Notes: generated from the letters alone by a model not told the origin. Shown: positions 41,679 through 62,481, numbered from the stretch's first letter. The stretch is 64,000 nt of DNA from an uncultured Chloroflexia bacterium (GCA_963712745.1 CAVQJC010000005.1:32001-96000); one strand, 5' to 3'. Numbers and translations: made by a program.

Positions 41679-41753
41679 TGGTCGGGGTGGCGGGGATCGA
41701 ACCCGCGACCTCATGCTCCCAAAGCATGTGCGCTACCTCTGCGCTACACCCCG
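41679..41753 (-). tRNA. tRNA-Pro (anticodon TGG), intact with encoded CCA
   Basis: CGGGGTG/CACCCCG acceptor stem, GCGC D-stem, CATGC-TTTGGGA-GCATG anticodon arm, GCGGG-TTCGATC-CCCGC T arm, ACCA end; 75 nt. Confidence 0.98.
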
Positions 41754-41829
41754 ATGGTGTTCGTGCGTGGATAGGGTACACAGCGCGGCTCGATGACGAC
41801 ACCGATGGGGCCTACACGGCTCGAACCGC
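41754..41829 (-). promoter_or_regulatory. tRNA upstream region, equal to the right arm of the array repeat; -10-like TACCCT at 41773-41778
   Basis: Homologous to the right arm of the array repeats; -10-like hexamer 19 nt upstream of the mature tRNA 5' end. Confidence 0.7.
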
Positions 41830-41883
41830 GGTATCGTCGGGCAGCCTGCGCGCGATGGAAATGCCGGAGTGGGCAGCCACAGA

Positions 41884-42777
41884 TCAACCTCTGCCGATGA
41901 ACTCGAGGATGTCCGGGCAGAGGCGCTCGTCCGAGATGGCCTGCATATGGTCCTTGCCTTCGTAGACACACAGGGTGCAGTCAGGGATCAGGCTGGCGGT
42001 CTCGTCGAGATATCCCTCGGGGAACATGAAGTCGGCATCGCCGCCGATGAGCAGCACCGGGACACCGATCTCGGGCAGGACGGGTCGCGCGTCGAAGGCC
42101 ACCTCGGCCTCGCCCTCGATCAGCACGTCGCTGGCGAACTCGGGGTGCCCGCCGCGGAACCCAATCCGTCCCATCACCTGGCCGAACAGCCAGGCCAGGC
42201 CGGGAACACGAACCTGCGGGAAGTAGTCTTCGAACATCCCCCTGGCGGCTTCGACCGGTCGACCTTTGCTGAGGCGCTCGGCGAACCGGTAGTCGATGTG
42301 TTTGCCGCGCTCGCTCACCTCGTAGCCAGCCAAGGCGATGACGATGTGGTCGAAGCGATCGGGGTGGCGAGCCGCCAGATAGAAGCCGATGATTCCGCCG
42401 TATGACGTCCCGAGCGCCACGTCCACCTTGCCGCCCAATTCCGACTCGATGAACTCAGCGTAGTCGTCGGCCATGTCGGCGATGGAATGCCCCTGCGGCA
42501 TGCCCTGCTTGCGCATGACGTACCAGATCGTGTAGCCCTCGTCGATGAACCGGCGGAACGGGCGAAGCATCATCCGGAGACTGATACCAGCGGGGGCGAA
42601 GTTGCCCGGACCACCGGGCATGAGCAGGAGCGTCTTCGCTCCCTCGCCCCATCGCGCGTACGCCATGCGACTCTTGGACATGCCGGTGACCGGCCTCGGT
42701 GCTCCCATCCAGACCGCCCGGCGTCCGGCGAGGATGGCCACGCCAGCCACGAAGAACAGTGCGATGAGTCGTCTCAT
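41884..42777 (-). CDS. Alpha/beta hydrolase (module 1)
   Basis: PGGPG, nucleophile elbow GTSYGG, GGDAD, KDH. Confidence 0.88.
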   Translation of the reverse strand: MRRLIALFFVAGVAILAGRRAVWMGAPRPVTGMSKSRMAYARWGEGAKTLLLMPGGPGNFAPAGISLRMMLRPFRRFIDEGYTIWYVMRKQGMPQGHSIADMADDYAEFIESELGGKVDVALGTSYGGIIGFYLAARHPDRFDHIVIALAGYEVSERGKHIDYRFAERLSKGRPVEAARGMFEDYFPQVRVPGLAWLFGQVMGRIGFRGGHPEFASDVLIEGEAEVAFDARPVLPEIGVPVLLIGGDADFMFPEGYLDETASLIPDCTLCVYEGKDHMQAISDERLCPDILEFIGRG

Positions 42778-42779
42778 GA

Positions 42780-43628
42780 TCAAACCCCTCTTTCGACTCG
42801 GACGGCGGCTTCCTCGGCTCGCGGCCTGGCGATCGCTCGCACCCGTACCGCCTCGGGCGAGGGAGTGGGCTCCCGACGGAGTTCGGTCGGCAGTTCCTGG
42901 CCGCCGACCCAGGCCTCAATCGTGCGGATGTGCAGGTCGGGTGCCTGTCTTTGCCAGCAGTGGTCAAGGCCGGGCGCGTACCAGGCCTCGCCGTGGGGCA
43001 TGAGCGCGGCAAGGGCCGCGTTGGACGGCCGGTACCAGGCCTCTTGCTCACCTGCGACGAGCAGCGTCGGGTTCGACGTCTCGGCGAGCGGCGGGAGGCG
43101 TTCCATGCTTCCCACGAAGGCACGCCAGAACGCGAGGCGTGACGCATCGCGCAGGTCAGCCTCATCCATGACATTCCCGAATAGCGCTCGGAACCACCGA
43201 GCGTGCTTGAAGGGCAGTGCCGCGGTCAGCACGTACAGCAGAGGAAGCCTCGACGCTCGCGGCCAGTGGATGGGCGTGCCGTCCGCGATCACCCGATCGA
43301 CCAGTTCCGGATGGCGACTCAGCAAGGTAAGCGCGAGTGTCGCCCCCCAGGAGAGTCCCACCACGTGGACCAGCTGCCCTGGGACCCTCGATCCGATGAG
43401 CTCGGCCAGCAGCGCGACGATATGCCCGTTCGATGACGGTGCAAGGTGGTTGCTGCGTCCGAACCCCGGCAGGTCGGGGGCCAGGCAGTGGAAGTGGCTG
43501 AGCTTGGTCATGTGCCCTTGCCAGATGCGCCCGCTCTGACCCATCCCGTGGATGAAGAGGATGTCCGGTGAGCCCGGTGTCCCTGACTCCTCCACGTACA
43601 TGCCACCCAGGTACTTGGGGTGGCTCAT
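42780..43628 (-). CDS. Alpha/beta hydrolase (module 1)
   Basis: FIHG, PDLPGFGRS, GLSWG, GLDHCW. Confidence 0.88.
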   Translation of the reverse strand: MSHPKYLGGMYVEESGTPGSPDILFIHGMGQSGRIWQGHMTKLSHFHCLAPDLPGFGRSNHLAPSSNGHIVALLAELIGSRVPGQLVHVVGLSWGATLALTLLSRHPELVDRVIADGTPIHWPRASRLPLLYVLTAALPFKHARWFRALFGNVMDEADLRDASRLAFWRAFVGSMERLPPLAETSNPTLLVAGEQEAWYRPSNAALAALMPHGEAWYAPGLDHCWQRQAPDLHIRTIEAWVGGQELPTELRREPTPSPEAVRVRAIARPRAEEAAVRVERGV

Positions 43629-44137
43629 CTCGTCACCCCGACGGTGTCCTCTTCGGAGTCAGACCGCGGTTCCAGGACCACGACCGCCATCTCGCGCGAC
43701 AGCCTGGCGGCATCACTGTCGATGTCGCACATGAAGCCCACGCCGGACCGCTTGCCGAAGTCGCGCCACAGGGCCCACAGGCGCTTCCGTTCATCGCCCT
43801 CCGCCGCCCGTGCCCGAACGGGATGGATCCCATCTTTCAGCCGGACGACGGCATCGGGGCAAGCCTGGAGGTTGAGCCACCACGCAGGGTCCGCGTCGGA
43901 CCACCCGTTGAACGGGATGATGACGAGGTTCGCGCCATCCTCCAGGTAGCCGATGATCGCGCTCCGCTCCCTGCCCGAGTGGCGACCGACCGTCATGAGA
44001 CACATCTCTCCCCAACGATCGGATCTCGGGCGTGATAATGCGAGGCGCCCTCCCGAGAGCCGATGGACGGTGCGCTGGGCAGTCCCGAACCCACGGAAGA
44101 ACCAGGGAGGAGGCAGGCGCCGACGCTCGCTGCTCAT
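43625..44137 (-). CDS. Nitroreductase family deazaflavin (F420)-dependent oxidoreductase (module 1)
   Basis: TVGRHSGRER, NG..DPAWWLNLQA, VVVLEPR; ATGA coupling. Confidence 0.85.
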   Translation of the reverse strand: MSSERRRLPPPWFFRGFGTAQRTVHRLSGGRLALSRPRSDRWGEMCLMTVGRHSGRERSAIIGYLEDGANLVIIPFNGWSDADPAWWLNLQACPDAVVRLKDGIHPVRARAAEGDERKRLWALWRDFGKRSGVGFMCDIDSDAARLSREMAVVVLEPRSDSEEDTVGVTR

Positions 44138-44778
44138 GCCGACGCATCTGCCGGCTTCGTGCCTCGGGCGAGCAGCGCCTTCGAGAACACCGGCATCACC
44201 GAGACGGTGACATCGCCGAAGCCGGCCTCCTCCACCAGCCGCTGTGCGGCGTCGTCGGTCCACTGCCACTGGCCCCACTTGTCGACCACGCCCTCGGTCG
44301 CGCCGGCCGGCGCCTCCCCTGCCTCACCCAGGGTGACTGCCAGCCGACCGCCCGGACGCAGGACCCGGTGCATCTCCTTCAGCGCCGCCAGCGGATCGGG
44401 GAAGAACTTCATGGCGTTGACGGAGGTAGCGACGGTGAAGCGGCCGTCGTCCCAGGGCAGATGGTCGGCATCGCCCTCGACGATCTCCGCGGTGCCCGCG
44501 GTGATGCGCTCGGCCAGGCGGCGCCGGGCCGCCTCGAGCTGCAGCGCCGAGGCGTCGAGACCAGCGACGTAGCGCACACCTCCCGCGTGGTCGACGAACA
44601 GCGTCGCCGAGCCACATCCGACGTCGAGCAGCTCATCGTCGGGCTGCAGGTCCAACTCCGCGGCGATCGCCTCGTGGAATGGACGGCTGCTTCTCGGCAT
44701 CAGCCTGACGCCGAGTCGTCCGGGCAGGCCGTGCGGTACTCCGAAGAATGACATCCACCAACTTCGGCGCAGACCCAT
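44134..44778 (-). CDS. Class I SAM-dependent methyltransferase (module 1)
   Basis: LLDVGCGS, GDADHLPW, EMHRVLRPGG. Confidence 0.92.
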   Translation of the reverse strand: MGLRRSWWMSFFGVPHGLPGRLGVRLMPRSSRPFHEAIAAELDLQPDDELLDVGCGSATLFVDHAGGVRYVAGLDASALQLEAARRRLAERITAGTAEIVEGDADHLPWDDGRFTVATSVNAMKFFPDPLAALKEMHRVLRPGGRLAVTLGEAGEAPAGATEGVVDKWGQWQWTDDAAQRLVEEAGFGDVTVSVMPVFSKALLARGTKPADASA

Positions 44779-44799
44779 CGCACGTCCCCCCATGCACAC

Positions 44800-44902
44800 G
44801 GGCCGGGTTCGCCAGTGGCTCGGCGCGGTCCTCAGCGGCCATGATCGACGGGCCGCGCGTCCTCGCCTCCCGCTAGGTCCGATTATCCCGTGGCAGCCAA
44901 GC
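44800..44902 (-). repeat. Leader motif B, copy 1
   Basis: GGGTTCGCCAGTGGCTC...CAGCGGCCATG...GCCTCCCGCTA...ATTATCCCGTGGCAGCCAAG; shared with 50654, 56783, 59634, 63010. Confidence 0.8.
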
Positions 44903-44962
44903 CCGATGTCTGGAAGGGGCGGCTAATCGGGCAGCTATGCCGCCATCATCTGGCGTCGACCG

Positions 44963-45171
44963 GATCACGCTCGCGAACCGCACAATAATCGACGCCTTCG
45001 CCGCTCGGGGCGCCACGCTCACAACCCCCGCAGCCTTCGCCGCTCGAGCCTGAAAGGCTCCCAAAGCATGTGCGCTACCGCTGCGCTACACCCCGACGTG
45101 GTTCGTGCGTGATTAAGGGTACACAGCGCGCCTCGATAGCGACGCCGATGGGCCTACAGCACTCGAACCGC
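44963..45171 (-). repeat. Array repeat R1 (tRNA-Pro 5' half at 45057-45095)
   Basis: CACGCTCGCGAACCGCAC...GCTCCCAAAGCATGTGCGCTACCGCTGCGCTACACCCCG...AGGGTACAC...CTCGAACCGC. Confidence 0.95.
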
Positions 45172-45312
45172 GCGATATGCCGAACGGGTCAGTCTCGCGC
45201 CATGGGCCTCGATCCGGAGCATGCCAAGGTCGTATCCATGGGCCCCAGGTCGGCGCTGTGCGACTCGAGGCGACGCTGCCGCCAGCCGGACGCTCGTCGT
45301 TCCTCCGCCAGG

Positions 45313-46500
45313 CTACTCGCGACCCGACTGCCGTGCGAGGTCGCGCTTGAACTCATCGATCTCGGGGACCGAGATGACCGACTCGCTGAGCCAATCGGGC
45401 AATCCACCCACCGCAGCGAGGTCGACGTTCGAGCCACCCATGCGCTGGACGTACGCTGGATCGGTCACGATGAACTCCCAGGGATGGACCTCCGCCATAC
45501 GGGTCACGATCTGCTCCGCCGTGATGTTCACGACGGTGTAGTCCTGGGCTAGCGTGAACGGGCCGCGGTAGCCGGTGCGGAGACCATCGAGAATCGGCTG
45601 CGGCGTCCCCGGAGCGATCATCGCGTGATAGCCCATGGCCATGCCCGGCTTGGTCGCCTCGAAGACCTTCGCGGCGGCCTGCGGTGCGGTGTGCATCGTC
45701 CAGGCGACGGTCCTCGCGATGAGCTCGGGCCAGCCCATCTTCTCCATGTACATCTCCGGCGGATTGAAGATCTCATGGATGAGGAGATCGACGCCCTTGG
45801 CATTCTCGACGGTGAAGGTCGATGGTTCGCAATCGCCGGCGTACACCAGCGACAGCCCCGCGTAGTCCAGGCGGTAGCCGACCGCACCGAAGATGGAATG
45901 TGGCACCGGGAACGCGCGGATGGCGACGCCGTCCTCTTCGTAGATGAGGGTCGCCTCATCCGCCGCGAAACGATGCGGCGTGATCTCGTACACGCGCGGA
46001 TCCAGCCCGGCCTTGGCGCGATCATGCCAGGTCGCCAGACGCTTGATGGCGTCCACGACAGCCTCGGTGGACTCACCCTCGCCGCTGCCGTCGGGTCCGT
46101 GGATGTGCATCGGCTCGAGCCGCCCGTTCGTCTGGCCGAAGTCGTAGTAGACGGGCAGGTCGGCGATGTGATCGAGGTGGAAGTGGGTGATGAAGAACCG
46201 TGTCGCCTTCCAATACGGCAGTCGCAGCGTGTTGAAGGCCATGTTCGTGCCCGGGCCGGCATCGAAGATGAAGCTCTGTCCGTTGCCGCACTCCACGAGC
46301 CAGCCGGCGCAGCCCTGGCCCCGCCGTGCCGGATAGCCGGTGCCCAGGGCGGTGACGCGGACCTCCGCCCTCGCCAACTCCTCGGACTCGGGCGTATAGC
46401 GGTCCGGATAGGTACGTCGCTCAGCAGACTCGTCCTTCACCACGACCGGATGCGTCGTCAGCGGCACGCTGTGGTACGGCTCGGGTAGTCGCTCAGCCAT
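45313..46500 (-). CDS. MBL-fold metallohydrolase (RNase Z / AtsA-like) (module 2)
   Basis: ALGTG, FDAGPG, THFHLDH, VPH, YAGD, LIHE. Confidence 0.9.
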   Translation of the reverse strand: MAERLPEPYHSVPLTTHPVVVKDESAERRTYPDRYTPESEELARAEVRVTALGTGYPARRGQGCAGWLVECGNGQSFIFDAGPGTNMAFNTLRLPYWKATRFFITHFHLDHIADLPVYYDFGQTNGRLEPMHIHGPDGSGEGESTEAVVDAIKRLATWHDRAKAGLDPRVYEITPHRFAADEATLIYEEDGVAIRAFPVPHSIFGAVGYRLDYAGLSLVYAGDCEPSTFTVENAKGVDLLIHEIFNPPEMYMEKMGWPELIARTVAWTMHTAPQAAAKVFEATKPGMAMGYHAMIAPGTPQPILDGLRTGYRGPFTLAQDYTVVNITAEQIVTRMAEVHPWEFIVTDPAYVQRMGGSNVDLAAVGGLPDWLSESVISVPEIDEFKRDLARQSGRE

Positions 46501-46664
46501 CTTCGTGCCTCCCTTGGGCTGTGGTTGAACCTGCTCGACATCGACGGTACCGGGTTTGGCCAGGGTCGACGCGGCAGAGGTTCCCCGGCAGCGTGCAACC
46601 GATGCAGGCAATCGCTACGGTAAGGCCCACCGGCCTCACGTCGCAGCCATACAGAGGTACATGT

Positions 46665-49001
46665 ATGCCAGAGCACGATCCAGTCGTGGATGGATCTACG
46701 CTTCCGTTTCCCAAGCCCAAGTCTGGCAGCGTGGCCGGCCGCACGATGCAAGAGTCCATCTACGACCCGGCGCCCCCACCACAGCGGCTGCCGGCTGATG
46801 CGCCGAACATCCTGATCATCCTGATCGACGATGCCGGGCCAGCGCTGCCGGAAGCGCTGGGCGGTGTCGTGCACACCCCGACGCTGGAGCGAGTCCTCTC
46901 GGAGGGGATCGGGTTCAACCGCTTCCACACGACAGCCATGTGCTCGCCCACCAGGGCCTCGTTGTTGACGGGCCGCAACCACCACCGGGTCGGCAGCGGC
47001 GTGATGACCGAGTTCGCCAACGACTGGGATGGCTACTCGGGCGTCATCCCCCGCAGTAGCGCCCTCCAGGCCGAGGTGCTGCGACAGTACGGCTACGCCA
47101 CCGCCGCGTTCGGCAAGTGGCACAACACCCCTGGGATCGAGACGTCGGCGGCCGGGCCGTTCGACAATTGGCCGGCTCGCATCGGGTTCGAGTACTTCTA
47201 TGGGTTCCTCTCGGGTGAAGCCTCACAGTACGAACCGAACCTCGTCCGCAATACGACCCCGGTCCTGCCGCCGAAGACGCCGGAGGAGGGATATCACCTG
47301 AGCGAGGACCTCGCCGAAGACGCGGTCCGCTGGCTCCAGACGCACAAGGCGGTGCAGCCCGACAAGCCCTTCTACCTGTACTGGGCGAGTGGAGCCGTCC
47401 ATGGCCCCCACCACGTTCACAAGCAGTGGGCTGACAAGTACCGTGGCATGTTCGACGACGGCTGGGACGCCTATCGTGAGCAAGCGTTCGAAGGCGCCAA
47501 GGCGAAGGGCTGGATCCCGGAGACCGCCGAGTTGACGCCCCGGCATCCGACGATGCCGGCGTGGGACGATCTCCCAGAGGACCAGAAGCCGTTCCAGCGC
47601 CGCCTGATGGAAGTGTTCGCCGGCTTCGGCGAGCACGCCGACGTACAGGCGGGCAAGGTCATCGATGAGATCGAACGCCTCGGCTACGGGGATAACACCC
47701 TGGTCGTCTACATCTGGGGTGACAACGGATCATCGGGCGAGGGCCAGCAAGGAACCATCAGCGAGTTGATGGCGGTGAACGGTATCCCCTCCACGGTCGA
47801 GCAGCACATCGAGGCCCTCGACACGCTCGGCGGGCTCGATGTGCTTGGCTCACCGCTCGTCGACAACATGTACCACGCTGGGTGGGCGTGGGCGGGCAGC
47901 GCCCCCTACCAGGGCATGAAGCTGCTCGGATCGCACTTCGGTGGAACCCGGAACCCGATGGCCATCCGATGGCCCGCGAGGATCACACCCGACGCGAGAC
48001 CGCGATCGCAGTTCCACCACTGCAACGACCTCGTGCCCACTATCTACGAGCTGCTTGGCATCACGCCGCCGCAGACCGTGAATGGAGCCCCCCAGGACCA
48101 GATCGATGGGGTGAGCCTGGCCTACACCTTCGATGACCCTGACGCCGAAGGGCGCCTTCGCACGCAGTACTTCGACATCATGGGTAGCCGGGCGATCTAT
48201 CACGACGGCTGGATGGCCTCCGCCATCGGGCCACGGCTGCCCTGGGTCCCAGGTCTCGACCCGAAGATGTTCGAGTGGACACCCGACAAGGACGTCTGGG
48301 AGCTCTACAACCTCGAGGAGGACTGGTCGCAGGCCCATGACCTCGCCGGGGCGATGCCCGAGAAGCTGGCGCAGATGAAGGAGGTCTTCCTCATCGAAGC
48401 GGCCAGGAACAAGGCCCTGCCGATCGGCGGCGGGCTATGGATCCCCTTCCATCCTGAGTTCCGTGCCGCATCGCCGCAGACCGAATGGACCTTCGCAGGC
48501 GACCTCGTTCGCATCCCGGAGCCCGTCGCGCCGGGGCTGGGCAACAGGCCCAACGTCGTCACCATCCTCGCGGACGTGCCCAGCGACGCCACCGGTGTGC
48601 TCTACAAGCTTGGTGCTGGCTCTTCTGGCGTCACGCTGTTCGTCGAGGACGGCCACCTGGTCTACGAGTACAACCTGTTCATCATCCAGCGAACCCAGAT
48701 CCGTTCCGCCACCAAGCTTCCGGTCGGCAAGGTGGAGATCCGAGTGACGACCCTGCCGGTCGAACCGCGCCCCTCGGGTCCCCTGCAGGTGATGCTCGAG
48801 GTCAACGGCGACGCCGTGGGCGAAGGCACCGTCCCGGTCAGCATCCGTACGAGCTTCACGGCCAACGACTGCCTGGACATCGGGCAGGCGCTCGGCTCTC
48901 CAGTCTCGCTCGACTACCGTGACCGGGCACCGTTCAAGTTCAACGGCACGATCGAGCAGGTCCAGGTGAGGTACCTACCACCGGCGCAGCCGTCAGCGTA
49001 G
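46665..49001 (+). CDS. Arylsulfatase (formylglycine-dependent) (module 2)
   Basis: IDDAG, CSPTRASLLTGR, FGKWH, GDNG; RBS AGAGG. Confidence 0.95.
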   Translation: MPEHDPVVDGSTLPFPKPKSGSVAGRTMQESIYDPAPPPQRLPADAPNILIILIDDAGPALPEALGGVVHTPTLERVLSEGIGFNRFHTTAMCSPTRASLLTGRNHHRVGSGVMTEFANDWDGYSGVIPRSSALQAEVLRQYGYATAAFGKWHNTPGIETSAAGPFDNWPARIGFEYFYGFLSGEASQYEPNLVRNTTPVLPPKTPEEGYHLSEDLAEDAVRWLQTHKAVQPDKPFYLYWASGAVHGPHHVHKQWADKYRGMFDDGWDAYREQAFEGAKAKGWIPETAELTPRHPTMPAWDDLPEDQKPFQRRLMEVFAGFGEHADVQAGKVIDEIERLGYGDNTLVVYIWGDNGSSGEGQQGTISELMAVNGIPSTVEQHIEALDTLGGLDVLGSPLVDNMYHAGWAWAGSAPYQGMKLLGSHFGGTRNPMAIRWPARITPDARPRSQFHHCNDLVPTIYELLGITPPQTVNGAPQDQIDGVSLAYTFDDPDAEGRLRTQYFDIMGSRAIYHDGWMASAIGPRLPWVPGLDPKMFEWTPDKDVWELYNLEEDWSQAHDLAGAMPEKLAQMKEVFLIEAARNKALPIGGGLWIPFHPEFRAASPQTEWTFAGDLVRIPEPVAPGLGNRPNVVTILADVPSDATGVLYKLGAGSSGVTLFVEDGHLVYEYNLFIIQRTQIRSATKLPVGKVEIRVTTLPVEPRPSGPLQVMLEVNGDAVGEGTVPVSIRTSFTANDCLDIGQALGSPVSLDYRDRAPFKFNGTIEQVQVRYLPPAQPSA

Positions 49002-49066
49002 CCGAGGTCGTAGCCCGACCGCGTCGAATCGGGCTACAGGAGCAGGCGTGAGTTGCTCAAGGCCGG

Positions 49067-49277
49067 CACGCTCGCGAACCGCACAATAATCGAGGCCTTC
49101 ACCGCTCAGCTCGCCACGCTCGAAGCCCCGGAGCCTTCACCGCAAACCCCTCCTAGGCTCCCAAAGCATGTGCGCTACCGCTGCGCTACACCCCGATGGC
49201 GTCTGTGCACGGATAGGGTACACAGCAGGGCTCGATAGCGACACCAGAGAGCCTACAGCGCTCGAACCGCACAATAA
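49067..49277 (-). repeat. Array repeat R2 (tRNA-Pro 5' half at 49157-49195)
   Basis: Same architecture as R1; GAACCGCACAATAA at both ends. Confidence 0.95.
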
Positions 49278-54896: not shown

Positions 54897-54995
54897 CTGG
54901 GTCTCCTTGGGAAGGGCGAATTGCGAGCCGATGATGCCAGACCCCATCCGATGCGGCCATCGATCACGCGACCGCCCTGATGGTCAACGACGTGT

Positions 54996-55155
54996 CGCGC
55001 TCCCGAACCGCACGATGATCGAGGCCTTGGCCGCAAACCCCTCGCAAGCTCCCAAAGCTGTGCGCTAGCGCTGCGCTACACCCCGACGTGGTTCGTGCGT
55101 GACTGGGGTACACGGGAGGGCTCGATGGCGATACCAAGGGGCCTCACAGCGCGCG
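54996..55155 (-). repeat. Array repeat R6, internally deleted (tRNA-Pro 5' half at 55048-55085)
   Basis: Left arm lacks the roughly 40 bp between the two GCCTTCRCCGC direct repeats; 1-nt deletion in the anticodon stem. Confidence 0.9.
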
Positions 55156-55202
55156 GGAAAACAGGCCTGCCCCCGGCGGTGCGTCGAGCTGAGCTCCTGG
55201 TA

Positions 55203-56072: not shown

Positions 56073-56764
56073 GCCACGGACGCCTTGACGGGCATCTGTC
56101 GCTCTGGGGCGCTGGCCACCGCGGTGGATGCCGGTTTGACAGCCCGGACGAGCTGGGACTTGGAGGGCACCGGCAGGACCGTGACGCTGATGTCGGTGAA
56201 GCCTGCCTCCTCGACAAGCCTGGCCGCGTCGACGTCGCTCCAGAACCAGACGCCCCAAGCGTCGCGCGTACCCGACTTGTCGGTCCGCCCCAAGAGGGCC
56301 TTCGTGTTGTCGCCCATGGTGAAGACGGCGCGTCCACCGGGTCGCAGGACGCGGTGCATCTCAGCCAGCGCCCCTCCCGGGTCGGACGTGAACTTCATGG
56401 CGTCGAGGGAGGTGACGACGCCGAAGCGGGAGTCCTCCCAGGGCAGGTCCGCAGCATCGCCGAGGACGATCTCGGCCGTCCCCGCGGCGATGCGTTCGGC
56501 CAGACGCTTTCGGGCCATCTCGATCTGGAGCTCCGAGGCATCGATGCCGGCCACGTAGCGGACGTGAGCGGCGTGCTCGGCGAAGAGCACCGCCGATCCG
56601 CAGCCGACGTCGAGCAACTCGTCGTCGGCCTGGAGGTCGAGCTCGGCGGCCATGGCGCGATGGTACTTGCCCTTCATCGACGCCAGCAGCCGGGCACCGA
56701 TCCAGCCGAGCGGACCGTGGGGCACTCCCAGCAACGCGTAGTCGAACGATCTGCGCAGACCCAT
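56069..56764 (-). CDS. Class I SAM-dependent methyltransferase, paralog of 44134-44778 (module 7)
   Basis: MGLRRS, LLDVGCGS, GDAADLPW, EMHRVLRPGG. Confidence 0.92.
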   Translation of the reverse strand: MGLRRSFDYALLGVPHGPLGWIGARLLASMKGKYHRAMAAELDLQADDELLDVGCGSAVLFAEHAAHVRYVAGIDASELQIEMARKRLAERIAAGTAEIVLGDAADLPWEDSRFGVVTSLDAMKFTSDPGGALAEMHRVLRPGGRAVFTMGDNTKALLGRTDKSGTRDAWGVWFWSDVDAARLVEEAGFTDISVTVLPVPSKSQLVRAVKPASTAVASAPERQMPVKASVA

Positions 56765-56782
56765 CGCACGTCCCCCTTGCGC

Positions 56783-56883
56783 GGGCCGGGTTCGCCAGTG
56801 GCTCAGCGCGGTCCTCAGCGGCCATGGTCACGGACCGTGCGTCGGAGCCTCCCGCTACCCACCATTCTCGCGCGGCCGCCAAG
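56783..56883 (-). repeat. Leader motif B, copy 3
   Basis: GGGTTCGCCAGTGGCTC...CAGCGGCCATG...GCCTCCCGCTA...ATTCTCGCGCGGCCGCCAAG. Confidence 0.8.
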
Positions 56884-56947
56884 ACCATGGTGCGGTCGGA
56901 ACCTATCAGCCGGGCGGCAACGAGTGAGCATCATGCAGGCTGCCACG

Positions 56948-57165
56948 GATCACGCTCGCGAACCGCACGATGATCGAGGCTTTCGCCGCTTCCCCGGCCA
57001 CGCTCACGCCCCCGGAGCCTTCGCCGCTCGAGCCTAGAAGGCTCCCAAAGTATGTGCGCAACCGCTGCGCTACACCCCGACGAGGTTCGTGCCTGACTAG
57101 GGTACACAGCGGAGCTCGACAGCGACATCTGAAGGCCTGCAGCGCTCGAACCACACGATGATCGA
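56948..57165 (-). repeat. Array repeat R7 (tRNA-Pro 5' half at 57041-57079)
   Basis: Same architecture; GAACC(G/A)CACGATGATCGA at both ends. Confidence 0.95.
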
Positions 57166-57176
57166 CGGCGGGCGGT

Positions 57177-57753: not shown

Positions 57754-58194
57754 TCAGCTCCCAGCTTCGGCTTCCTTCGGCGCGATGATCTTCGCCAGCA
57801 GCGGCTGGTCGATGATGTAGTCCTTCGCTGAGCGTGCCTTGCCACCCTCGACCACGAACGCCGTCACACCGGTGAGCTGGGAGCAATGGCCATCGTGATC
57901 ACCCTCTTCGAGGTCCCACTCCACGTGCACGACGTTGGAGTTCGAGACCGCCCAGACGTTCTCGACCGAGACGTGTCGAACGGTGAAGCGCGTCACCGGC
58001 ATCGTCTCGAACCAGTTCGCGAACCACTCACGGTTGGCCTCGCGTCCCTCGAAGCGGCCGCTCCTGACGGTCTCGCCCGGGAACTCGAAGACAGCATCCT
58101 CGTGGAACAGCTCGGCCACCGCGTCAGGGTCCCGTCCGTTGACCGTCGCGTAGCCCTGTCGCACCGCTCGCTGCATCAAGACCGCACCGATCAT
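57754..58194 (-). CDS. NTF2/SnoaL-like protein (module 8)
   Basis: FHEDAVFEFPG..SGRFEGRE..WFANWF, VHVEW; RBS AGGAGG. Confidence 0.85.
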   Translation of the reverse strand: MIGAVLMQRAVRQGYATVNGRDPDAVAELFHEDAVFEFPGETVRSGRFEGREANREWFANWFETMPVTRFTVRHVSVENVWAVSNSNVVHVEWDLEEGDHDGHCSQLTGVTAFVVEGGKARSAKDYIIDQPLLAKIIAPKEAEAGS

Positions 58195-58210
58195 GTCGTC
58201 CCTCCTTTGG

Positions 58211-59575
58211 CTAGGCTCGTACCCCGTAGCCGACCTGCAAATCGTCGCTCGGCGAGTGGACCTCGACCGCATCGAAGCCGGCATCGTGCAGTAGCTGCGC
58301 AAGCTCCTCGTCGCTGTAGAGCGTGGCCTTGTGCAGGAACCAGCCCACGGCACGAGTGCCGACGTCCTCGCGCTTCGGCTTGGGCATGGTCACGACCACG
58401 AAGCGACCGCCGGGCTTCAGGACCCTGACGGCCTCGTGCAGGACCCTTGGCGGGTCGGCGGCGAGGAAGAGTGCCGCCAGATTGGACTCCGCGTCGAAGG
58501 TGGCGTCGTCCCAGGGCAGCGCGGTGGCGTCACCGAGGCGCACCTCGAGGCGGCCCTCGGCCACTGCCCGAGCGTTGTTCTCCCGTGTCAACTCGACCAT
58601 ATCCGGGCTGTGGTCGATGCCGGCAGCCTGGTCGACCGTCTCGAGTGCCTGCGACAGGAACGTCCCGCCACCGCAGCCGACGTCAAGCAGATGGTCCGTT
58701 GGCGCCAGAGCGAGCTTCTCGTGGCAGGCGCGCCAGCCCTCGCCGTGCATCGAGGTCGCGTCTCGGTAGAGCATCCGGCCGATGGGTCCGCTGGGCCGCG
58801 AGATCGCCATATCCGTCAGCCGATCGACGATGTCACGACCTCGCAGCATGAGCAGCGCCGCACCGGCCACAGCCGCGCCAGCGAGCGCGAGGAGGAATCG
58901 ACGCCTAGCCACCAAGCCCATGAGTCCGACGATGGCTGCGACCGGCCAGACCCATATCAGATCGAGCGGGAGTGGCGCCGGCCCGGGCTCGTCGACCGGG
59001 TCGAGACGGACGACGTGGATGCGCTCGATGTCCCGGGCGAATCCCTCGGGGCTGTCCTCGACCCCCAGGTCAGCGAGGTACTCGTGGAACCGGCGACGGA
59101 CGCCGTGTTCGAGTATCGCGTACTGTGCGACCGCCTCGTCATGGTCGGTGGGATGGGCCGCGCGGGCCGTCCAGGTGCCGTGGGCATCCTGGATGGTGAC
59201 GATGGGGTCGGCCACCAGGTTGCGATACCAGTGGGCCCGGTCTCCATAGGGGTTCCATAGGTACCTGCGGCCCTCGATCTGGGCCCCGCCAATGACGATC
59301 CGTCGGGGCAGCCCGCTCGCTCGACCCGTGGTGGTGAGGACGACGTCACCCTCGATCCGGCCCAGCCCGAGCCTCCACAGGAGCATCGGAGCCCGGTGCG
59401 CGAGGCGGACCAGGAGTGTGTCCGGGTAGGCGGCGAGTCGGTCTTCGATGCGATCGTAGAGCTGGTGCAGCCGCGAGCCCATACGGTCGGCTGGCGTCAC
59501 GCCGGGCAGTCCAGCCGTGCCGGTGTCGGCATCCTGCTCCAGCCGTGATGCACTGGTCGGGGCGGTGGCGACCAT
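58211..59575 (-). CDS. Fusion: deazaflavin-dependent nitroreductase domain + TM segment + SAM methyltransferase (module 8)
   Basis: LTTTGRASGLPR, WYRNLVADP; hydrophobic linker; LLDVGCGGG, GDATALPW, RVLKPGG. Confidence 0.85.
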   Translation of the reverse strand: MVATAPTSASRLEQDADTGTAGLPGVTPADRMGSRLHQLYDRIEDRLAAYPDTLLVRLAHRAPMLLWRLGLGRIEGDVVLTTTGRASGLPRRIVIGGAQIEGRRYLWNPYGDRAHWYRNLVADPIVTIQDAHGTWTARAAHPTDHDEAVAQYAILEHGVRRRFHEYLADLGVEDSPEGFARDIERIHVVRLDPVDEPGPAPLPLDLIWVWPVAAIVGLMGLVARRRFLLALAGAAVAGAALLMLRGRDIVDRLTDMAISRPSGPIGRMLYRDATSMHGEGWRACHEKLALAPTDHLLDVGCGGGTFLSQALETVDQAAGIDHSPDMVELTRENNARAVAEGRLEVRLGDATALPWDDATFDAESNLAALFLAADPPRVLHEAVRVLKPGGRFVVVTMPKPKREDVGTRAVGWFLHKATLYSDEELAQLLHDAGFDAVEVHSPSDDLQVGYGVRA

Positions 59576-59633
59576 CGGCTCCCCCTGCTCGAAGCGGGTC
59601 GCGAGCGCCCGCACCAGCCGGTGGCGTTCACCG

Positions 59634-59671: not shown

Positions 59672-59746
59672 GGTGCGCCTGGCTCAGCTGGGCGGGACCG
59701 TTGGGGTGCCGGGCAGTCCGCCGAAGCGACGAAGCGGCCGGCATTT

Positions 59747-59957
59747 CACGCTCGCGAACCGCACGATAATCGAGGCCTTCGCCGCTCCCCCGGCCACGCT
59801 CACGCCCCCGGAGCCTTCGCCGCTCGAGCCTGAAAGGCTCCCAAAGCATGTGCGCTACCGCTGCGCTACACCCCGACGAGGTTCGTGCCTAGAGAGGGTA
59901 CACAGCACGCCCCTATAGCGACACAAAGGGACCCACAGCGCTCGAACCGAACACGAT
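59747..59957 (-). repeat. Array repeat R8 (tRNA-Pro 5' half at 59837-59875)
   Basis: Same architecture as R1. Confidence 0.95.
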
Positions 59958-60081
59958 CTGGTCCACGAACGCTGGGTCGTCATCACTGAACGTTGGCCAC
60001 GCTCTCGTACCGCACAATGATGTGGGTAGCGGCGGCTCGGGGCACCGGGCAGGTCCGCAGAAGCAGCGAGGAGCCGATGCC

Positions 60082-61137
60082 ATGACATCGTCACCGCCAC
60101 CGCCACGGCCGATGCCTTCGAGCCTGACGCCCGTCGGCAAGCTCGGCTTCCGCGGACGCGCGGCCACACCCGAGGAGCGGGCCCGCATCTTCGACGCACT
60201 GTTCTTCGAGGGCGCGCAACGGATCCCCTACCTGCAGCAGTACTTCGTGCTCATGTTGCTCTCGGCCGCGATCGCCGCCTTCGGGATCGTCAACGACAGC
60301 GCCGCAGTGGTCATCGGGGCCATGCTCGTGGCACCGCTGATGACGCCCATCCTCGCGGTCGCTGCGGCGATCGTTCATGGCTGGGGCCGCCGGGCCCTCG
60401 AGTCGCTGCTCATCGTGGCTGCCGGTGCCCTCGCCGGGATCGGCGTCGGCATCGCGGTCGGATGGCTGGTCCCGAACGTGAACACGGGCCTGCCGTTGCC
60501 GGGTGAGCTCCTCGCGCGCACGAGCCCGAACCTCGTCGACCTGTTCATCGCGCTCGCCGCCGGTAGCGCGGCCGGCTTCGTGACGGTGCGGACCGAGGCT
60601 AGCGGTGCCTTGCCGGGCGTGGGCATCGCGGTAGCGCTGGTGCCACCGCTCGCGACCATCGGCATCACCATCGGCCTTGGAGACTGGGGACTCGCCTGGG
60701 GGGCGCTGTTGCTGTTCGCGACGAACCTCGTGGCCATCGTCCTCGCGGCTGGCGCGGTGCTCCTCGCGGCCGGGTTCGCGGCGTTCCGTGACCTCGAGGG
60801 CGCCCGTAGTGCCTCGCTCGCCACCAAGCTCGTCTGGATCGGCCTCCTCATCGTCGCCGTCCCGCTCGCGTTCCAGTCGTGGGCCCGCTACCAGGAGAGC
60901 GTGGCGCGCGGGCACATCGTCGAGGCCATCGAGACCTGGGCTGCCGACCTCAGAATCCGCGACGTGCACATCGACCGCTCGGCCGACCCGGTCCTCGTCG
61001 AGGTCACGGTCGTGGGACCCGAGGAACCGCCGCCGCCAGGCAGGCTGGCCGAACTCACGGCAGAGGATCTCGGACGACCGGTGCGGCTGGAGGTGACCTG
61101 GGCACCGATGACGGCGGTCGAAGCCCCGGCTCCCTAG
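60082..61137 (+). CDS. DUF389-like membrane protein (module 9)
   Basis: DSAAVVIGAMLVAPLMTPI, ELLARTSPNLVDL, LPGVGIAVALVPP, LLFATN. Confidence 0.88.
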   Translation: MTSSPPPPRPMPSSLTPVGKLGFRGRAATPEERARIFDALFFEGAQRIPYLQQYFVLMLLSAAIAAFGIVNDSAAVVIGAMLVAPLMTPILAVAAAIVHGWGRRALESLLIVAAGALAGIGVGIAVGWLVPNVNTGLPLPGELLARTSPNLVDLFIALAAGSAAGFVTVRTEASGALPGVGIAVALVPPLATIGITIGLGDWGLAWGALLLFATNLVAIVLAAGAVLLAAGFAAFRDLEGARSASLATKLVWIGLLIVAVPLAFQSWARYQESVARGHIVEAIETWAADLRIRDVHIDRSADPVLVEVTVVGPEEPPPPGRLAELTAEDLGRPVRLEVTWAPMTAVEAPAP

Positions 61138-61273
61138 GCTGGGCCCGACGGTGCGCACGGGCGATAGCCAACGGCGCCGCACGAACGCGTCTATCGATCG
61201 AGAACGTGTGCGCCCGTCTGGGTTCGCGATCCGGACCGCTGGCGACAACCGGGGCCTCTGCTCGAGGCGTGAC

Positions 61274-61485
61274 CGTGCTCGCGAACCGCACGATGATCGA
61301 GGCCTTCACCGCTCGGGCCATCTCGCTCAGGACCCCTGAGCCTTCGCCGCTCGAGCCTGGAAGCCTCCCGAAGCATGTGCGCTACCGCTGCGCTACACCC
61401 CGACGGAGTTCGTGCCTGGCTACGGGTACACAGCGGGCCTCGATAGCGACAACGACGGGCCTACAGCGCTCGAACCGCACGATGA
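61274..61485 (-). repeat. Array repeat R9 (tRNA-Pro 5' half at 61364-61402, anticodon variant CGG)
   Basis: Same architecture; loop reads TTCGGGA on the minus strand. Confidence 0.93.
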
Positions 61486-61632
61486 CCCCGAACCGCTCGA
61501 AGTCGTGGACGTTGGACTCCGGTCGCAACAGGCAGACTCAGGGCCCGTGGCCGAATCCGGGTCCCGCGGTGAGGCACGGGTGGACTTGGGCGGTCAGCTC
61601 GCACCCATCCGCAGCTGTCTCGTCGGCGTCGC

Positions 61633-62229
61633 TCAGCGTGGCAGCGGGTTCGGGCCGGTCGCGGTCACGAGCCGCTGTGGCATCCAGTCGTCGACGTGGT
61701 GGAACCCGTCCTCGAACTGACGACCATCGAGCTCGACTGATGCTCGCAGCGAAAGTCGATAGAACTTCACGTGCGTGAAGTCCTCGAACAGGATGTAGAC
61801 GGGGTCGGGTGTGCTGTTCGGGCCTTGGAACTGCTGGCCCGTCAGGACGGGCTTGTGGACTTCGACGAACGTGTCGAACGTGTCGCCCACGACGACGCCG
61901 AGGTGTTCCAGGCCCATCTTGTAGACGCGCTGATGGACCGGGGGAATGAGCTCGATCATCGGAACCTCCTTGTCGTCAAGCGCCTCTAGCGGCTCGGCGG
62001 GAAGGATCAACGAGATCGGCCGACCGTTCCAGAGGTTCTCGAGGTTCGAGGTCGCGTGGCGCTCCAGGAGCGTCCGGACGTGGACGTACTGGTCCCACTC
62101 GGGCACGCGGAACGCAAGGTGGCTAAGCGCGTATGGGGCGATGTCGATGCCGCGCTCCAGTAGGCGGTCGCGCTGTTGGGCCGCGAAGGCTCGGTAGTCC
62201 CCGATGATGTCGCCTACCGGATCGGCCAT
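61633..62229 (-). CDS. VOC family (YecM-like) protein (module 10)
   Basis: SHLAFR, NLWNGRPI, IELIPP, GLEHLGVV, VKF; RBS GAGGAGG. Confidence 0.8.
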   Translation of the reverse strand: MADPVGDIIGDYRAFAAQQRDRLLERGIDIAPYALSHLAFRVPEWDQYVHVRTLLERHATSNLENLWNGRPISLILPAEPLEALDDKEVPMIELIPPVHQRVYKMGLEHLGVVVGDTFDTFVEVHKPVLTGQQFQGPNSTPDPVYILFEDFTHVKFYRLSLRASVELDGRQFEDGFHHVDDWMPQRLVTATGPNPLPR

Positions 62230-62334
62230 CGCCTCCTCCTCTCGGTCGCCATCGTACGATACTGTGCAGCGAATCTGGAAGCTCAGCGGCATCACGCCCA
62301 TCGGCTAGGCAGCCCGTCGCCCGGTGCGGTATGC

Positions 62335-62481
62335 CACGCGCGCGAACCGCACAATGATCGAGGCGTTCGCCGCTCGCGCCGCCGCGCTCAGGACCCCGTC
62401 GCCTTCGCCGCTCGGGCCTGAAGGGCCCCCAAAGCATGCGCGCTGCCGCTGCGCTACACCCCGACGAGATTCGTGCGTGGA
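62335..62481 (-). repeat. Array repeat R10: left arm plus tRNA 5' half (62425-62463), right arm missing here
   Basis: Similarity stops after TCGTGCGTGGA. Confidence 0.9.

Follow-up and report, generated by a model that had tools for sequence, protein, structure and literature searches.

The locus described here raises the question of why the 5' half of a tRNA gene should be repeated, on the same strand, upstream of the one intact gene. The window (the whole stretch of DNA that was analyzed, 64,000 nt) comes from the MAG of an uncultured Chloroflexota bacterium (G000; 4.2 Mb, 84.5% complete), and the source has been described as a soil or sediment bacterium. The answer that we favor, with considerable confidence, is that the locus is a tandem array of small integrase-less integrative cassettes at a single tRNA-Pro(UGG) gene, to which they donate a promoter and a 5' half.

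The live tRNA gene and its displaced 5' halves

One tRNA is found in the window (ARAGORN, Rfam), a tRNA-Pro(UGG) encoded by the single UGG isoacceptor gene in the MAG. Genes for an SRPBCC protein, a DUF2568 protein and a GGDEF protein adjoin it.

41679..41753, minus: live tRNA-Pro(UGG), 75 nt (ARAGORN; Rfam tRNA model, 71.5 bits)
41754..41833, minus: upstream (P) arm of the live gene (nhmmer match to model positions 23-142; alignment)

The P arm of the live gene features the conserved blocks GGTTCGAGC..TAGGCCC and CTGTGTACCCTA. It is presumed to be the tRNA promoter and has no match to the sigma-70 consensus.

The window was searched for the 39-nt 5' part of this gene with at most 3 mismatches, with 100 shuffles as the control. 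Ten ungapped matches were found, all on the minus strand, from 41715-41753 to 62425-62463, and 0 were expected from the shuffles. This ungapped set includes the live gene and agrees with the ten copies counted in the initial annotation; an 11th copy at about 55048, which has a 1-nt deletion, brings the total to the live gene and 10 displaced copies. The acceptor strand CGGGGTG, claimed to be perfect in 10 of 10, is so in all 11. Also borne out is the observation that similarity stops at the same anticodon-loop position throughout: in 10 of 10 displaced copies, tRNA identity is lost after TTTGGGAGC (i.e., ...CATGC TTTGGGA GC), 2 nt into the 3' strand of the anticodon stem, and past this point the displaced copies share a non-tRNA sequence, CTTTCAGGCTCGAGCGGCGAAGGC or the CTACGAGGGGTTTGC variant. 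The D-loop reads AGCGGTA in the copies at 45057, 49157, 59837 and 61364, the same four (repeats 1, 2, 8 and 9) for which it had been reported, and five further copies are also of the C type; the live gene and the copy at 50919 have AGAGGTA instead.

Anatomy of the repeats and their cargo

Each displaced copy is embedded in a repeat of 215-230 nt that is made up of an upstream (P) arm, the tRNA 5' half (positions 1-40 of the live gene are common to all repeats) and a conserved downstream (P') arm. These repeats are spaced 0.95-4.1 kb apart and partition the cargo into cassettes of 1-4 kb.

41884..44799, minus: cassette 1 cargo, two alpha/beta hydrolases, an F420H2-dependent quinone-reductase-like protein and a SAM methyltransferase (Pfam)
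44792..44879, minus: c-di-GMP-II-GAG riboswitch-like element between repeat 1 and the methyltransferase gene (Rfam, 55.5 bits vs gathering score 40)
44954..45186, minus: repeat 1, P arm, half 45057-45095, P' arm
45313..49001: cassette 2 cargo, metallo-beta-lactamase-fold protein (45313-46611, minus) and sulfatase (46521-49001, plus) (Pfam)
49054..49288, minus: repeat 2, half 49157-49195
49430..50728, minus: cassette 3 cargo, 432-aa protein with a weak DUF4886 match; c-di-GMP-II-GCG riboswitch-like leader (50644-50728)
50817..51026, minus: repeat 3, half 50919-50957, AGAGGTA D-loop as in the live gene
50974..52479: cassette 4 cargo, zinc-type alcohol dehydrogenase (50974-52080, minus) and DUF6326 protein (52111-52479, plus) (Pfam)
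52519..52754, minus: repeat 4, half 52623-52661
53143..53397, minus: cassette 5 cargo, Phd/YefM antitoxin (Pfam)
53476..53700, minus: repeat 5, half 53575-53613
53718..54947, minus: cassette 6 cargo, serine beta-lactamase-fold (PF00144) protein (Pfam)
54979..55161, minus: repeat 6, decayed (1-nt anticodon-stem deletion and internal P' arm deletion); chimera not called tRNA-Pro
55203..56861, minus: cassette 7 cargo, alpha/beta hydrolase and methyltransferase; c-di-GMP-II-GAG riboswitch-like leader (56775-56861)
56937..57168, minus: repeat 7, half 57041-57079
57754..59614, minus: cassette 8 cargo, SnoaL-like protein and fused methyltransferase/F420H2 quinone-reductase-like protein (Pfam)
59736..59965, minus: repeat 8, half 59837-59875
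60022..61137, plus: cassette 9 cargo, DUF389 membrane protein (Pfam)
61266..61497, minus: repeat 9, half 61364-61402, loop TTCGGGA, so that its anticodon would read CGG
61633..62301, minus: cassette 10 cargo, YecM-like protein (Pfam)
62325..62554, minus: repeat 10, half 62425-62463
63141..63221, minus: partial repeat, P arm alone (model positions 15-92), without a tRNA half

The cassettes are att-flanked and carry no integration or transfer genes, as in cis-mobilizable elements (CIMEs). Among array genes with Pfam support, 22 of 26 are oriented as the tRNA; cassette 7 is paralogous to cassette 1, and toxin-antitoxin cassettes (Phd, PIN and MazF) are present. The displaced halves lie upstream of the tRNA gene and on its strand, as expected of a tDNA island; the contig has 16 of them, of which 10 fall in the window. 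The span of 41715-62463 given initially holds inside the window, which covers the tRNA-proximal 21 kb of the array, but not for the array as a whole, which extends over at least 36.5 kb and reaches G000:C5:110188, a would-be window position of 78188 (nhmmer repeat profile). At several outer boundaries there is only a truncated P' end (model positions about 181-241) and no old tRNA half. The repeats are sequence-conserved direct repeats: the RNAalifold covariation term is -0.71 kcal/mol, and in the hairpin/covariation test the repeat pair counts were not above those of shuffles (373 of 500 reach the observed score).

Conservation of the halves

The halves had been proposed to be kept fit to rebuild a working tRNA, and their conservation supports this. 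Mean pairwise identity is 0.95 in the half vs 0.68 in the P arm and 0.76 in the P' arm, and the non-consensus fraction is 2.4% vs 19% and 16.5%, respectively, with metagenome copies biasing positions 19-41. Invariance sets in sharply at tRNA position +1, the one common polymorphism being D-loop position 16, and some blocks in both arms equal the half in invariance. Of 16 in silico chimeras of a displaced half and the live 3' part, 15 were called tRNA-Pro (12 UGG, 2 CGG and 1 GGG), and thus the tDNA fragment borne on the attP-type site is predicted to restore a functional gene.

Halves farther from the tRNA diverge more from the consensus (Spearman rho 0.52, n = 40 non-independent copies). This decay, together with the partial repeats and internal deletions noted above, is what would be expected if the array were an immobile fossil pile-up, in which the cassettes are decayed stumps of integrase-bearing elements that lost their integrase by deletion. 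We consider this unlikely. All ten in-window repeats keep both arms and have sharp common ends, which argues against it, and further evidence on either side comes from the integrase and from related genomes.

A candidate integrase in related genomes

No recombinase gene was found in the array, as PF00589, PF00239 and PF07508 have no match inside that of G000. PF00589 is likewise absent inside the arrays of G009, G010, G014, G021, G022 and G031, and PF00239 and PF07508 inside those of G009, G010, G021 and G031. None of the 4 PF00589 matches in G000 is on the array contig, and its two strong tyrosine recombinases score as XerC/XerD, far under the integron-integrase cut-offs (NCBIfam, a typing that covers this pair only). 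G009 and G010 have only two strong PF00589 matches each, with Xer-type score and spacing. A search for a free or viral copy of the site found none.

In relatives, a tyrosine recombinase is found directly at the tRNA gene. That of G257 (327-349 aa) starts 84 nt from tRNA position +1, head-to-head, with a loop-plus-P' junction 13.4 kb upstream. In G008 (same genus), a 312-aa homologue with 68% identity is separated from the tRNA by 122 nt, and 5.9 kb upstream there is a displaced half with P' arm. Among 16 loci fetched for homologues with at least 58% identity, 10 are head-to-head with tRNA-Pro(UGG), 4 are head-to-head with tRNA-Val(GAC) and 2 are cut by contig ends, i.e., 10 of the 14 complete loci have the tRNA-Pro(UGG) arrangement. 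The protein features PF00589 and a SAM-like N-terminal domain and is without an arm-binding domain, so that the arm blocks about 100 nt from the core lack an explanation. From its genomic position, this integrase is likely the cognate enzyme of the repeats. The initial annotation had no recombinase to offer; the candidate now comes from relatives.

In G257, the P arm is the integrase-tRNA intergenic region and ends exactly at the integrase gene start, as would be seen if the cassettes were stumps of such elements. Against that origin, no integrase remnant was found anywhere in G000, where tblastn with the G008/G257-type integrase (E < 1e-5) yields only XerC/D-like genes.

It is far less probable still that the recombinase is a split large-serine-recombinase-like gene beside tRNA-Pro(CGG). 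This gene is on the array contig in G000, G009, G013, G022, G027, G031 and G034 and is 92-99% identical among several species. The system would then be like the DsiA/DsiB serine-recombinase module of the Dehalococcoides ssrA islands, a Chloroflexota precedent at a small-RNA gene in the part of the literature drawn on here (PMC3146451). Yet that module lies at att, whereas the gene lies 36-75 kb downstream of the array, where its 3' end overlaps that of tRNA-Pro(CGG); neither this tRNA gene nor the position within it is that of the array. It is also often broken by stops and present in array-less genomes (e.g., G007 and G017), and it is the tyrosine integrase that is placed directly at the site.

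Arrays and cassettes across genomes

All nine relatives fetched have an array upstream of tRNA-Pro(UGG), on the same strand, with 1 to about 10 repeats and differing content, and the junction of half and P' arm is present in 54 metagenome stretches. The claim that the live tRNA is a chimera, with its 5' half and promoter taken from the nearest cassette, is supported by two pairs of loci. The live 5' half of G021, its upstream arm and the adjoining cassette match a displaced copy and its cassette in a metagenome contig (L087) with 99.2% identity over 1002 nt, and the L070/L066 pair shows the same live vs displaced correspondence with 98.1% over 1507 nt. In G021/L087 and L066/L070, homology ends at ...TTTGGGAGC, the shared block ending within tRNA halves on both sides, and the cassette is terminal (beside the live 3' half) in one locus and internal in the other. 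Consistent with the same claim, ten array-bearing genomes have identical 3' parts but vary in the upstream arm and at D-loop position 16, which is A in 3 and C in 7; the live gene of G009 is without a canonical P arm.

Cassettes also recur in other species in different order and position. Between G000 and G009, identity is 94.9% for a PIN-toxin cassette vs 74-87% for flanking core DNA, which we take as a sign of transfer. This reappearance, and the finding of one cassette in terminal or internal position at 98-99% identity, which points to recent events, speak against a pile-up of immobile remnants.

The 7-nt loop is at most a candidate for the crossover overlap: the identity block is 41 nt long, and the crossover cannot be placed within it. 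Aberrant junctions of two kinds favor the 5' edge of the loop, and the crossover may well lie in or beside the anticodon loop.

A block of this length is also enough for homologous exchange. It is conceivable, but quite improbable, that after one ancient site-specific event the cassettes were excised in circular form, re-inserted or exchanged with incoming DNA by RecA-type recombination in the almost invariant 39-41-nt half and the conserved arm blocks, with no dedicated integrase today. Every cassette boundary lies inside the identity block, and the repeats are fine-scale mosaics: beyond 20 nt in either direction, linkage disequilibrium is at background level, and the junction does not stand out as a break. 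Between species, the link of arms to cargo is loose (for one shared cassette, P' identity ranks 6th, 26th and 22nd of 42), and no cognate integrase was found in G000 or, at E <= 1e-40, in G001, G009 and G010 (which have arrays or a cassette and are 90-91% complete). Homology alone, however, does not require arm blocks as invariant as the tRNA half, and it does not account for the aberrant junction at C5:101759, which begins exactly at the loop, for integrase elements bounded by the same repeats, or for an integrase family that is head-to-head with tRNA-Pro(UGG) at most of its complete loci.

A model for growth of the array

In the integrative model that we favor, each repeat would be a hybrid attP-type site consisting of a P arm (the tRNA upstream promoter region), tRNA positions 1-40 and a P' arm. 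A circular element with these three parts would undergo site-specific recombination with the tRNA gene of the chromosome, at or next to the anticodon loop. The incoming promoter and 5' half would join the resident 3' half and rebuild the gene, and the old promoter and 5' half would be shifted upstream and fused to the P' arm of the newcomer. Repeated insertion would give an array whose newest cassette is nearest the tRNA. A tyrosine integrase from the family found head-to-head with the tRNA-Pro(UGG) 5' end is the most likely enzyme; in related genomes, it sits in an element delimited by a displaced half of this type. As G000 lacks this integrase, its cassettes would behave as cis- or trans-mobilizable att-flanked modules or may now be fixed; it is plausible that they are mobilized, in the manner of CIMEs, by the cognate integrase of a neighboring or incoming element, for which G008, G257 and much of the family offer a candidate. 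What the analysis shows is the anatomy, the conservation of the halves, the modularity of cassettes between genomes and the linkage of integrase and tRNA in relatives; integrase action on the repeats, the point of crossover, activity of the P arms as promoters and mobility today are inferred from these. Each displaced P arm points into the next cassette and therefore probably drives the genes of that cassette. Several observations given above count against the model: the integrase was found neither in G000 nor in three array- or cassette-bearing relatives, the site was not found in free or viral form, arms and cargo are loosely linked, linkage disequilibrium has no break at the junction, some outer boundaries and the P arm of G009 are irregular, and the integrase is without an arm-binding domain.

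Comparison with known systems

The array appears to be a variant of tRNA-targeting islands with an integron-like pile-up, and the variant itself seems to be new. Like chromosomal integrons, it is a long array with one fixed insertion end, in which mostly one- to few-gene, co-oriented cassettes lie between recombination sites at short spacing, toxin-antitoxin cassettes among them. Such cassettes stabilize large integron arrays. Unlike integrons, it has no intI beside the insertion point (tRNA neighbors and recombinase typing), its sites are 215-nt direct repeats without covariation instead of attC hairpins, each site has its own promoter-like arm in place of one common promoter, and the insertion point is inside an essential tRNA gene. 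A bolder reading, which we offer tentatively and with less than even confidence, is that one Chloroflexota family has a second, independently evolved integron-like gene-capture platform. Integrase-less cassettes, each with its own tRNA promoter and 5' half, would be captured and reshuffled at the tRNA-Pro(UGG) anticodon loop by a trans-acting tyrosine integrase from transient elements; displaced promoters would drive the next cassette, sometimes via a riboswitch, and toxin-antitoxin cassettes would hold the array together. If so, every capture would give an essential tRNA a new promoter and 5' half, and translation would therefore police site quality.

The tyrosine-integrase islands at tRNA and tmRNA genes catalogued by Islander, in the portions of that account drawn on here, share much with the array: an intact tDNA, displaced fragments in direct orientation that mark element ends, an attP-sized att (about 250 bp) with a gene-restoring tDNA fragment, a crossover centered on the anticodon, and tandem arrays (PMC4383910). 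In the same account, a 3' fragment is left by 3760 islands and a 5' fragment by only 159 of 3919, only 4 tandems have at least 3 members, and each island is required to be at least 2 kb and to have its own integrase (PMC4383910). Here, in contrast, the 5' half and promoter are replaced, 16 halves stand in a row, and the 1-4-kb units are all without an integrase, which is found only in the related elements of G008 and G257.

CIMEs and the ssrA islands of Dehalococcoides, in the same phylum, are likewise att-flanked tandems at one essential small-RNA gene. As far as the part of the report used here goes, fifteen of the ssrA islands are without an integration module and are proposed to move by accretion with their neighbors (PMC3146451). 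They and CIMEs are larger than the cassettes and without promoter replacement. The tycheposons of Prochlorococcus are similar in that cargo elements enter island-proximal tRNA genes, push older ones inwards and leave partial tRNAs and degenerate elements (bioRxiv 10.1101/2020.12.28.424599). The sections of the tycheposon account considered here describe 1-2 elements per genome on average, with their own tyrosine recombinase, rather than replacement of the 5' half and promoter or dense arrays of integrase-less cassettes (bioRxiv 10.1101/2020.12.28.424599).

Organization of the Repeat Array

The gene for tRNA-Pro(UGG), at 41679-41753 on the minus strand, is the only tRNA gene in the window and the single gene for the UGG isoacceptor across the whole Chloroflexota MAG (G000; 4.2 Mb, 20 contigs, 84.5% complete, 5% contamination). 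The GC content is 65-72%. The first 39 nt of this tRNA occur 10 times with at most three mismatches between 41715 and 62463, all on the minus strand, where none would be expected by chance, and an additional half copy carries a 1-nt deletion. In every displaced copy, meaning the extra 5' halves upstream of the live gene, the tRNA match runs through CATGC TTTGGGA GC and is followed by common non-tRNA sequence. The perfect acceptor strand CGGGGTG and the D-loop variants described in the initial annotation are correct for the window copies. A profile search of the whole contig (C5, CAVQJC010000005.1) recovered the live junction followed by 16 displaced copies holding a half, one copy with only the downstream arm and one with only the upstream arm, up to C5:110188. 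Because the matches reach that point, the array spans at least 36.5 kb, and the window (C5:32001-96000) contains its tRNA-proximal 21 kb. Two more partial repeat copies were found at C5:120907 and C5:122516. Elsewhere in the MAG, one and the same series of tRNA genes (Ala-Ile-Ser-Ser-Arg-Ser) appears on contigs C1 and C2. Two related strains may be partly represented in the bin, and the array of the second strain may be the source of the repeat copies found on C8, C16, C17, and C20.

The profile, built from the window copies, describes a repeat of 215-230 nt with the tRNA half in the middle.

Elements of the repeat
P arm, model positions 21-101: tRNA upstream region and presumed promoter, with invariant blocks GGTTCGAGCGCTGTAGGCCC and CTGTGTACCCTA..CACGCACGA
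tRNA 5' part, model positions 102-140
P' arm, model positions 141-232: downstream non-tRNA sequence containing GAGCGGYGAAGGC twice and ending in CTCGATYATYGTGCGGTTCGCGAGCGTG, with invariant block GAGCGGYGAAGGCCTCGATYATYGTGCGGTTCGCGAGCG

The closing CTCGATYATYGTGCGGTTCGCGAGCGTG of the P' arm matches, in direct orientation, a motif at the P arm's outer end. A sigma-70 promoter scan of 41600-53800 gave no matches, and the promoter role of the P arm is thus argued solely from position and conservation. No consistent ORF was found in the tRNA sense of the conserved DR2 block. Its antisense frame encodes a recurrent peptide, LANRT[IM]IEAF, preceded by 0-156 aa without a common start, and this variable length and lack of a shared start led us to read the block as non-coding. 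RNAalifold folds of the P' arm reached -11 to -12 kcal/mol and showed hardly any covariation; two hand-drawn helices, paired in 81% of cells, were equalled by shuffles, and a GGTCC..GGACC hairpin seen in single-sequence folds was unsupported by pair counts. Three array-free relatives (G015, G016, and G017) have weak nhmmer matches to the P arm that start at model positions 36-54. The notion that array-free relatives lack the P arm was therefore dropped, as its proximal part resembles their native tRNA-Pro upstream region. An "ancestral promoter" at the distal end of the array was also rejected, since the likeness of G000:C5:110072-110188 to the live upstream region of the relative G009 (74.5% over 110 nt) is too weak.

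Conservation of the tRNA Halves

The displaced halves had been suggested to be kept in a state that can rebuild a working tRNA, and two comparisons agree with this. In the ten MAG arrays, the halves share a mean pairwise identity of 0.95, compared with 0.68 for the P arm and 0.76 for the P' arm, and of the 16 chimeras built in silico from a displaced half and the live 3' part, 15 were called as tRNA-Pro (12 UGG, 2 CGG, and 1 GGG), the remaining one being broken by a deletion. The non-consensus fraction across 89 non-identical displaced copies is 2.4% in the half and 19% and 16.5% in the arms; the metagenome copies among them had been selected by an exact match to positions 19-41. Invariance begins at tRNA position +1, and the sole common polymorphism in the half is at D-loop position 16 (C/A 52/37). 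Divergence from the consensus rises with distance from the tRNA (rho 0.52 for 40 copies that are not independent), a trend that fits selection while a half is in use and decay thereafter. Invariance equal to that of the half is also seen in blocks within the arms, so recombination or transcription, and not tRNA function, may account for part of the conservation.

Arrays in Relatives and Modularity of Cassettes

All nine same-genus relatives that were fetched have repeats upstream of tRNA-Pro(UGG) and on its strand, in 1 to about 10 copies. The DNA downstream of the tRNA is syntenic among them at 74-87% identity, while the content and order of the arrays vary, and some cassettes (the cargo between repeats) are more similar than the core, with the PIN cassette of G000 and G009 at 94.9%. 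P'-arm-like sequence was present in 12 of 91 other same-family genomes sampled, from 7 genera, and in none of the 209 genomes that represent the remaining families of the class. A 23-nt pattern spanning the junction between half and P' arm retrieved 54 stretches from public metagenome contigs, mostly short array fragments broken at repeats.

Comparing all arrays for near-identical blocks gave two cases in which one cassette occupies different positions. A Phd-type cassette that adjoins the live tRNA in one relative (G021) is internal in a metagenome contig (L087), where the same block (99.2% over 1002 nt) precedes a P' arm and a further cassette; similarly, a terminal cassette (L070) and an internal one (L066) are 98.1% identical over 1507 nt. 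The homology between G021 and L087 extends on the tRNA side through the P arm and half, ending at ...TTTGGGAGC, and on the distal side through the cargo, P' arm, and upstream half, ending at the 5' end of that half. Because homology stops at both halves, the shared unit is exactly one cassette (P' arm, cargo, P arm, and half). This bears out the proposal that the tRNA 5' half covaries with the adjacent cassette, in that promoter and 5' half travel with the cargo upstream of them. Across 10 array-bearing genomes, the 3' parts of the tRNA are identical, whereas D-loop position 16 (3 A, 7 C) and the P arms vary. When the P arm of each live copy was compared with those of other genomes or contigs, a displaced copy supplied the closest match, or tied with the best live one, in 12 of 15 cases.

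The linkage of arms to cargo between species is weak, and the repeats are fine-scale mosaics, with r2 at background beyond 20 nt on either side of the loop in an LD-decay test aimed at a recombination hotspot there. Some outer boundaries are truncated P' ends, and the live upstream arm of G009 is non-canonical. Homologous recombination within repeats probably adds to the reshuffling. Public sequencing runs were read as Logan contigs, which are short and broken at repeats. In two DNA runs from separate studies (X1 and X2), a joint of 53519 to 59986, with 32 letters on its shorter side, fuses a P'-arm-like stretch to a DUF389 cassette and skips 6.5 kb; it may reflect another cassette order in other populations or a misplacement on a similar P' arm.

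A Candidate Integrase Family

No tyrosine or serine recombinase was found inside the G000 array. A Pfam scan of 45 candidate ORFs in and around it returned only cargo, 10 ORFs on long metagenome contigs (L039, L060, and L078) included no recombinase, and the Y1 HUH transposase (PF01797) was found in none of five genomes. The MAG has four PF00589 matches, none on C5, and the two strong ones score as XerC/XerD. The relatives G009 and G010 each have only two strong PF00589 matches, with Xer-type score and spacing; XerC/D was considered as the enzyme only because these two genomes offer nothing else, and no dif-like site was recognized.

Extending the search to the family yielded a candidate in two other relatives. 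In G257, a PF00589 match lies 12 kb from the P' matches, and the integrase ORF (327 aa from the first start codon) starts 84 nt from tRNA-Pro(UGG) +1 in head-to-head orientation. The intergenic region between them corresponds exactly to the P arm of the profile (model positions 18-101), and a loop-plus-P' junction is located 13.4 kb upstream. This element additionally encodes a Replic_Relax protein. In G008, which belongs to the genus of the window, a 312-aa homologue with 68% identity lies 122 nt from the tRNA, and a displaced half with a P' arm is found 5.9 kb upstream. Such a head-to-head arrangement with the tRNA 5' end is expected for an element that donates promoter and 5' half. Both proteins consist of a catalytic domain and a SAM-like N-terminal domain; an arm-binding domain is absent, yet invariant blocks sit about 100 nt from the core. 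A search at E <= 1e-40 detected homologues in 75 of the 201 genomes of the family; two of these genomes are unpublished and underlie no other result here. Of 16 loci fetched (58-77% identity), 10 are head-to-head with tRNA-Pro(UGG), 4 with tRNA-Val(GAC), and 2 are cut by contig ends.

Val-type sister group of the integrase
L122, L126, L128, and L129 (genomes G158, G218, G204, and G322): 59-64% identity, head-to-head with tRNA-Val(GAC) in the same geometry

Integration on the 5' side may thus be a trait of the whole family. The placement of the integrase genes argues that the repeats are probable att sites of the G008/G257-type integrase family. No homologue or remnant was found in G000, and G001, G009, and G010 have no homologue at E <= 1e-40. 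Free forms of the site were found neither in IMG/VR (two patterns) nor in phage or plasmid collections.

The G008 tRNA (L096:5721-5795) has a T6-G67 wobble in the acceptor stem, where array-bearing genomes have T6-A67 and several array-free relatives C6-G67. This wobble may be a trace left when an imported 5' half was joined to the 3' half already in place.

A separate large-serine-recombinase-like gene lies outside the window at G000:C5:7455-8971 (L019:2456-3972), in two overlapping frames in G000 and G031. Its 3' end overlaps that of tRNA-Pro(CGG) in G000, and in G009 the tRNA is in the same locus. Several species share the gene at 92-99% identity. Stops often interrupt it, and G024 has as many as 15 fragments. 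The locus has the look of an independent serine-recombinase element that targets a tRNA gene.

Crossover Point and Proposed Mechanism

The possible crossover sites span the whole 41-nt identity block. Hints at the 5' edge of the loop come from two types of aberrant junction. One is the P'-only copy at C5:101759, which begins at (GC)TTGGGAGCC; the other is seen in three ectopic copies (C8:96162, C10:7262, and C17:5382) in which the P arm and a half ending in ...CATGC are fused to an unrelated conserved leader.

Ectopic fusions of P arm and half outside the array; the half ends before the loop
G000:C8:96130-96245
G000:C10:6951-7309
G000:C17:5116-5490

About 260 nt long, the ectopic leader continues into a small hydrophobic ORF (MSPLELV...); it is found without a tRNA part as well, at C20:35196, C9:6770, C8:94280, and C4:4719. 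The same fusion is present in a contig of public run X1.

These sequence comparisons are best read as the result of successive site-specific insertions in or next to the anticodon loop, in which the integrase-less cassettes would behave as modules that could be mobilized in cis or in trans. A newcomer element would donate its promoter and 5' half to the resident tRNA 3' half.

Relation to Known Integrative Elements

Previous work has described islands that target tRNA genes, att sites centred on the anticodon, tandem arrays, and att-flanked elements that lack an integrase (PMC4383910; PMC3146451; bioRxiv 10.1101/2020.12.28.424599). The Islander study lists 159 of 3919 islands as replacing the 5' end and four tandems of at least three members (PMC4383910). 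Against these figures, the present array combines the rare 5'-side geometry with at least 16 repeats at one gene. It is also unusual in that its units are small, lack integrases, and have a promoter-bearing site before each cassette, and in that the content of the array is integron-like, including toxin-antitoxin cassettes. Word searches of open-access full texts found no description of this system, which does not prove that none exists.

Islands that replace the 5' end must carry in a working promoter. In this uncultured, widespread lineage of soil and sediment, the outcome is a 36-kb reservoir that combines accessory enzymes with toxin-antitoxin genes and riboswitch-led operons. It offers a testable natural case of an essential RNA gene with a horizontally exchangeable front half and promoter, of small att-flanked cassettes reliant on an integrase in trans, and of an integron-like architecture arising from an ordinary tRNA-targeting integrase. 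Such arrays would be missed by island finders that demand an integrase per island and a minimum of 2 kb.

Cargo of the Array

Array units are 0.95-4.1 kb long and carry hydrolases, methyltransferases, F420-type reductases, a sulfatase, beta-lactamase-fold proteins, dehydrogenases, and toxin-antitoxin genes (Phd, PIN, and MazF); 22 of 26 Pfam-supported array genes are co-oriented with the tRNA.

Cargo features of the G000 array
44792-44879, 50644-50728, and 56775-56861, all minus strand: c-di-GMP-II-GAG or -GCG riboswitch-like elements (Rfam, above gathering score)
53143-53397: Phd antitoxin
G000:C5:103911-104348: PIN toxin
G000:C5:113954-114512: MazF/PemK toxin
41884-44799, 55203-56764, 57754-59614, G000:C5:95717-97597, and G000:C5:98512-101552: methyltransferase/alpha-beta hydrolase/F420H2-reductase-like set

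The toxin-antitoxin genes are among the most widely shared cassettes, with inter-species identity of up to 95% against 74-87% for core DNA. At least five cassettes of the G000 array contain versions of the methyltransferase/hydrolase/F420H2-reductase-like set, which are paralogues that have diverged to 66-75% DNA identity. RNA-library contigs from a public run (X18) map to 42200-43833 and 60229-60975, where DNA carry-over is possible. Three cassettes have their riboswitch-like element in the interval that separates the repeat from the first gene, immediately preceding a methyltransferase or DUF4886-like gene. A GGDEF (diguanylate cyclase) gene is located at 38455-40299, about 1.4 kb downstream of the tRNA, and sequence resembling the riboswitch leader was found again beside repeats in relatives.
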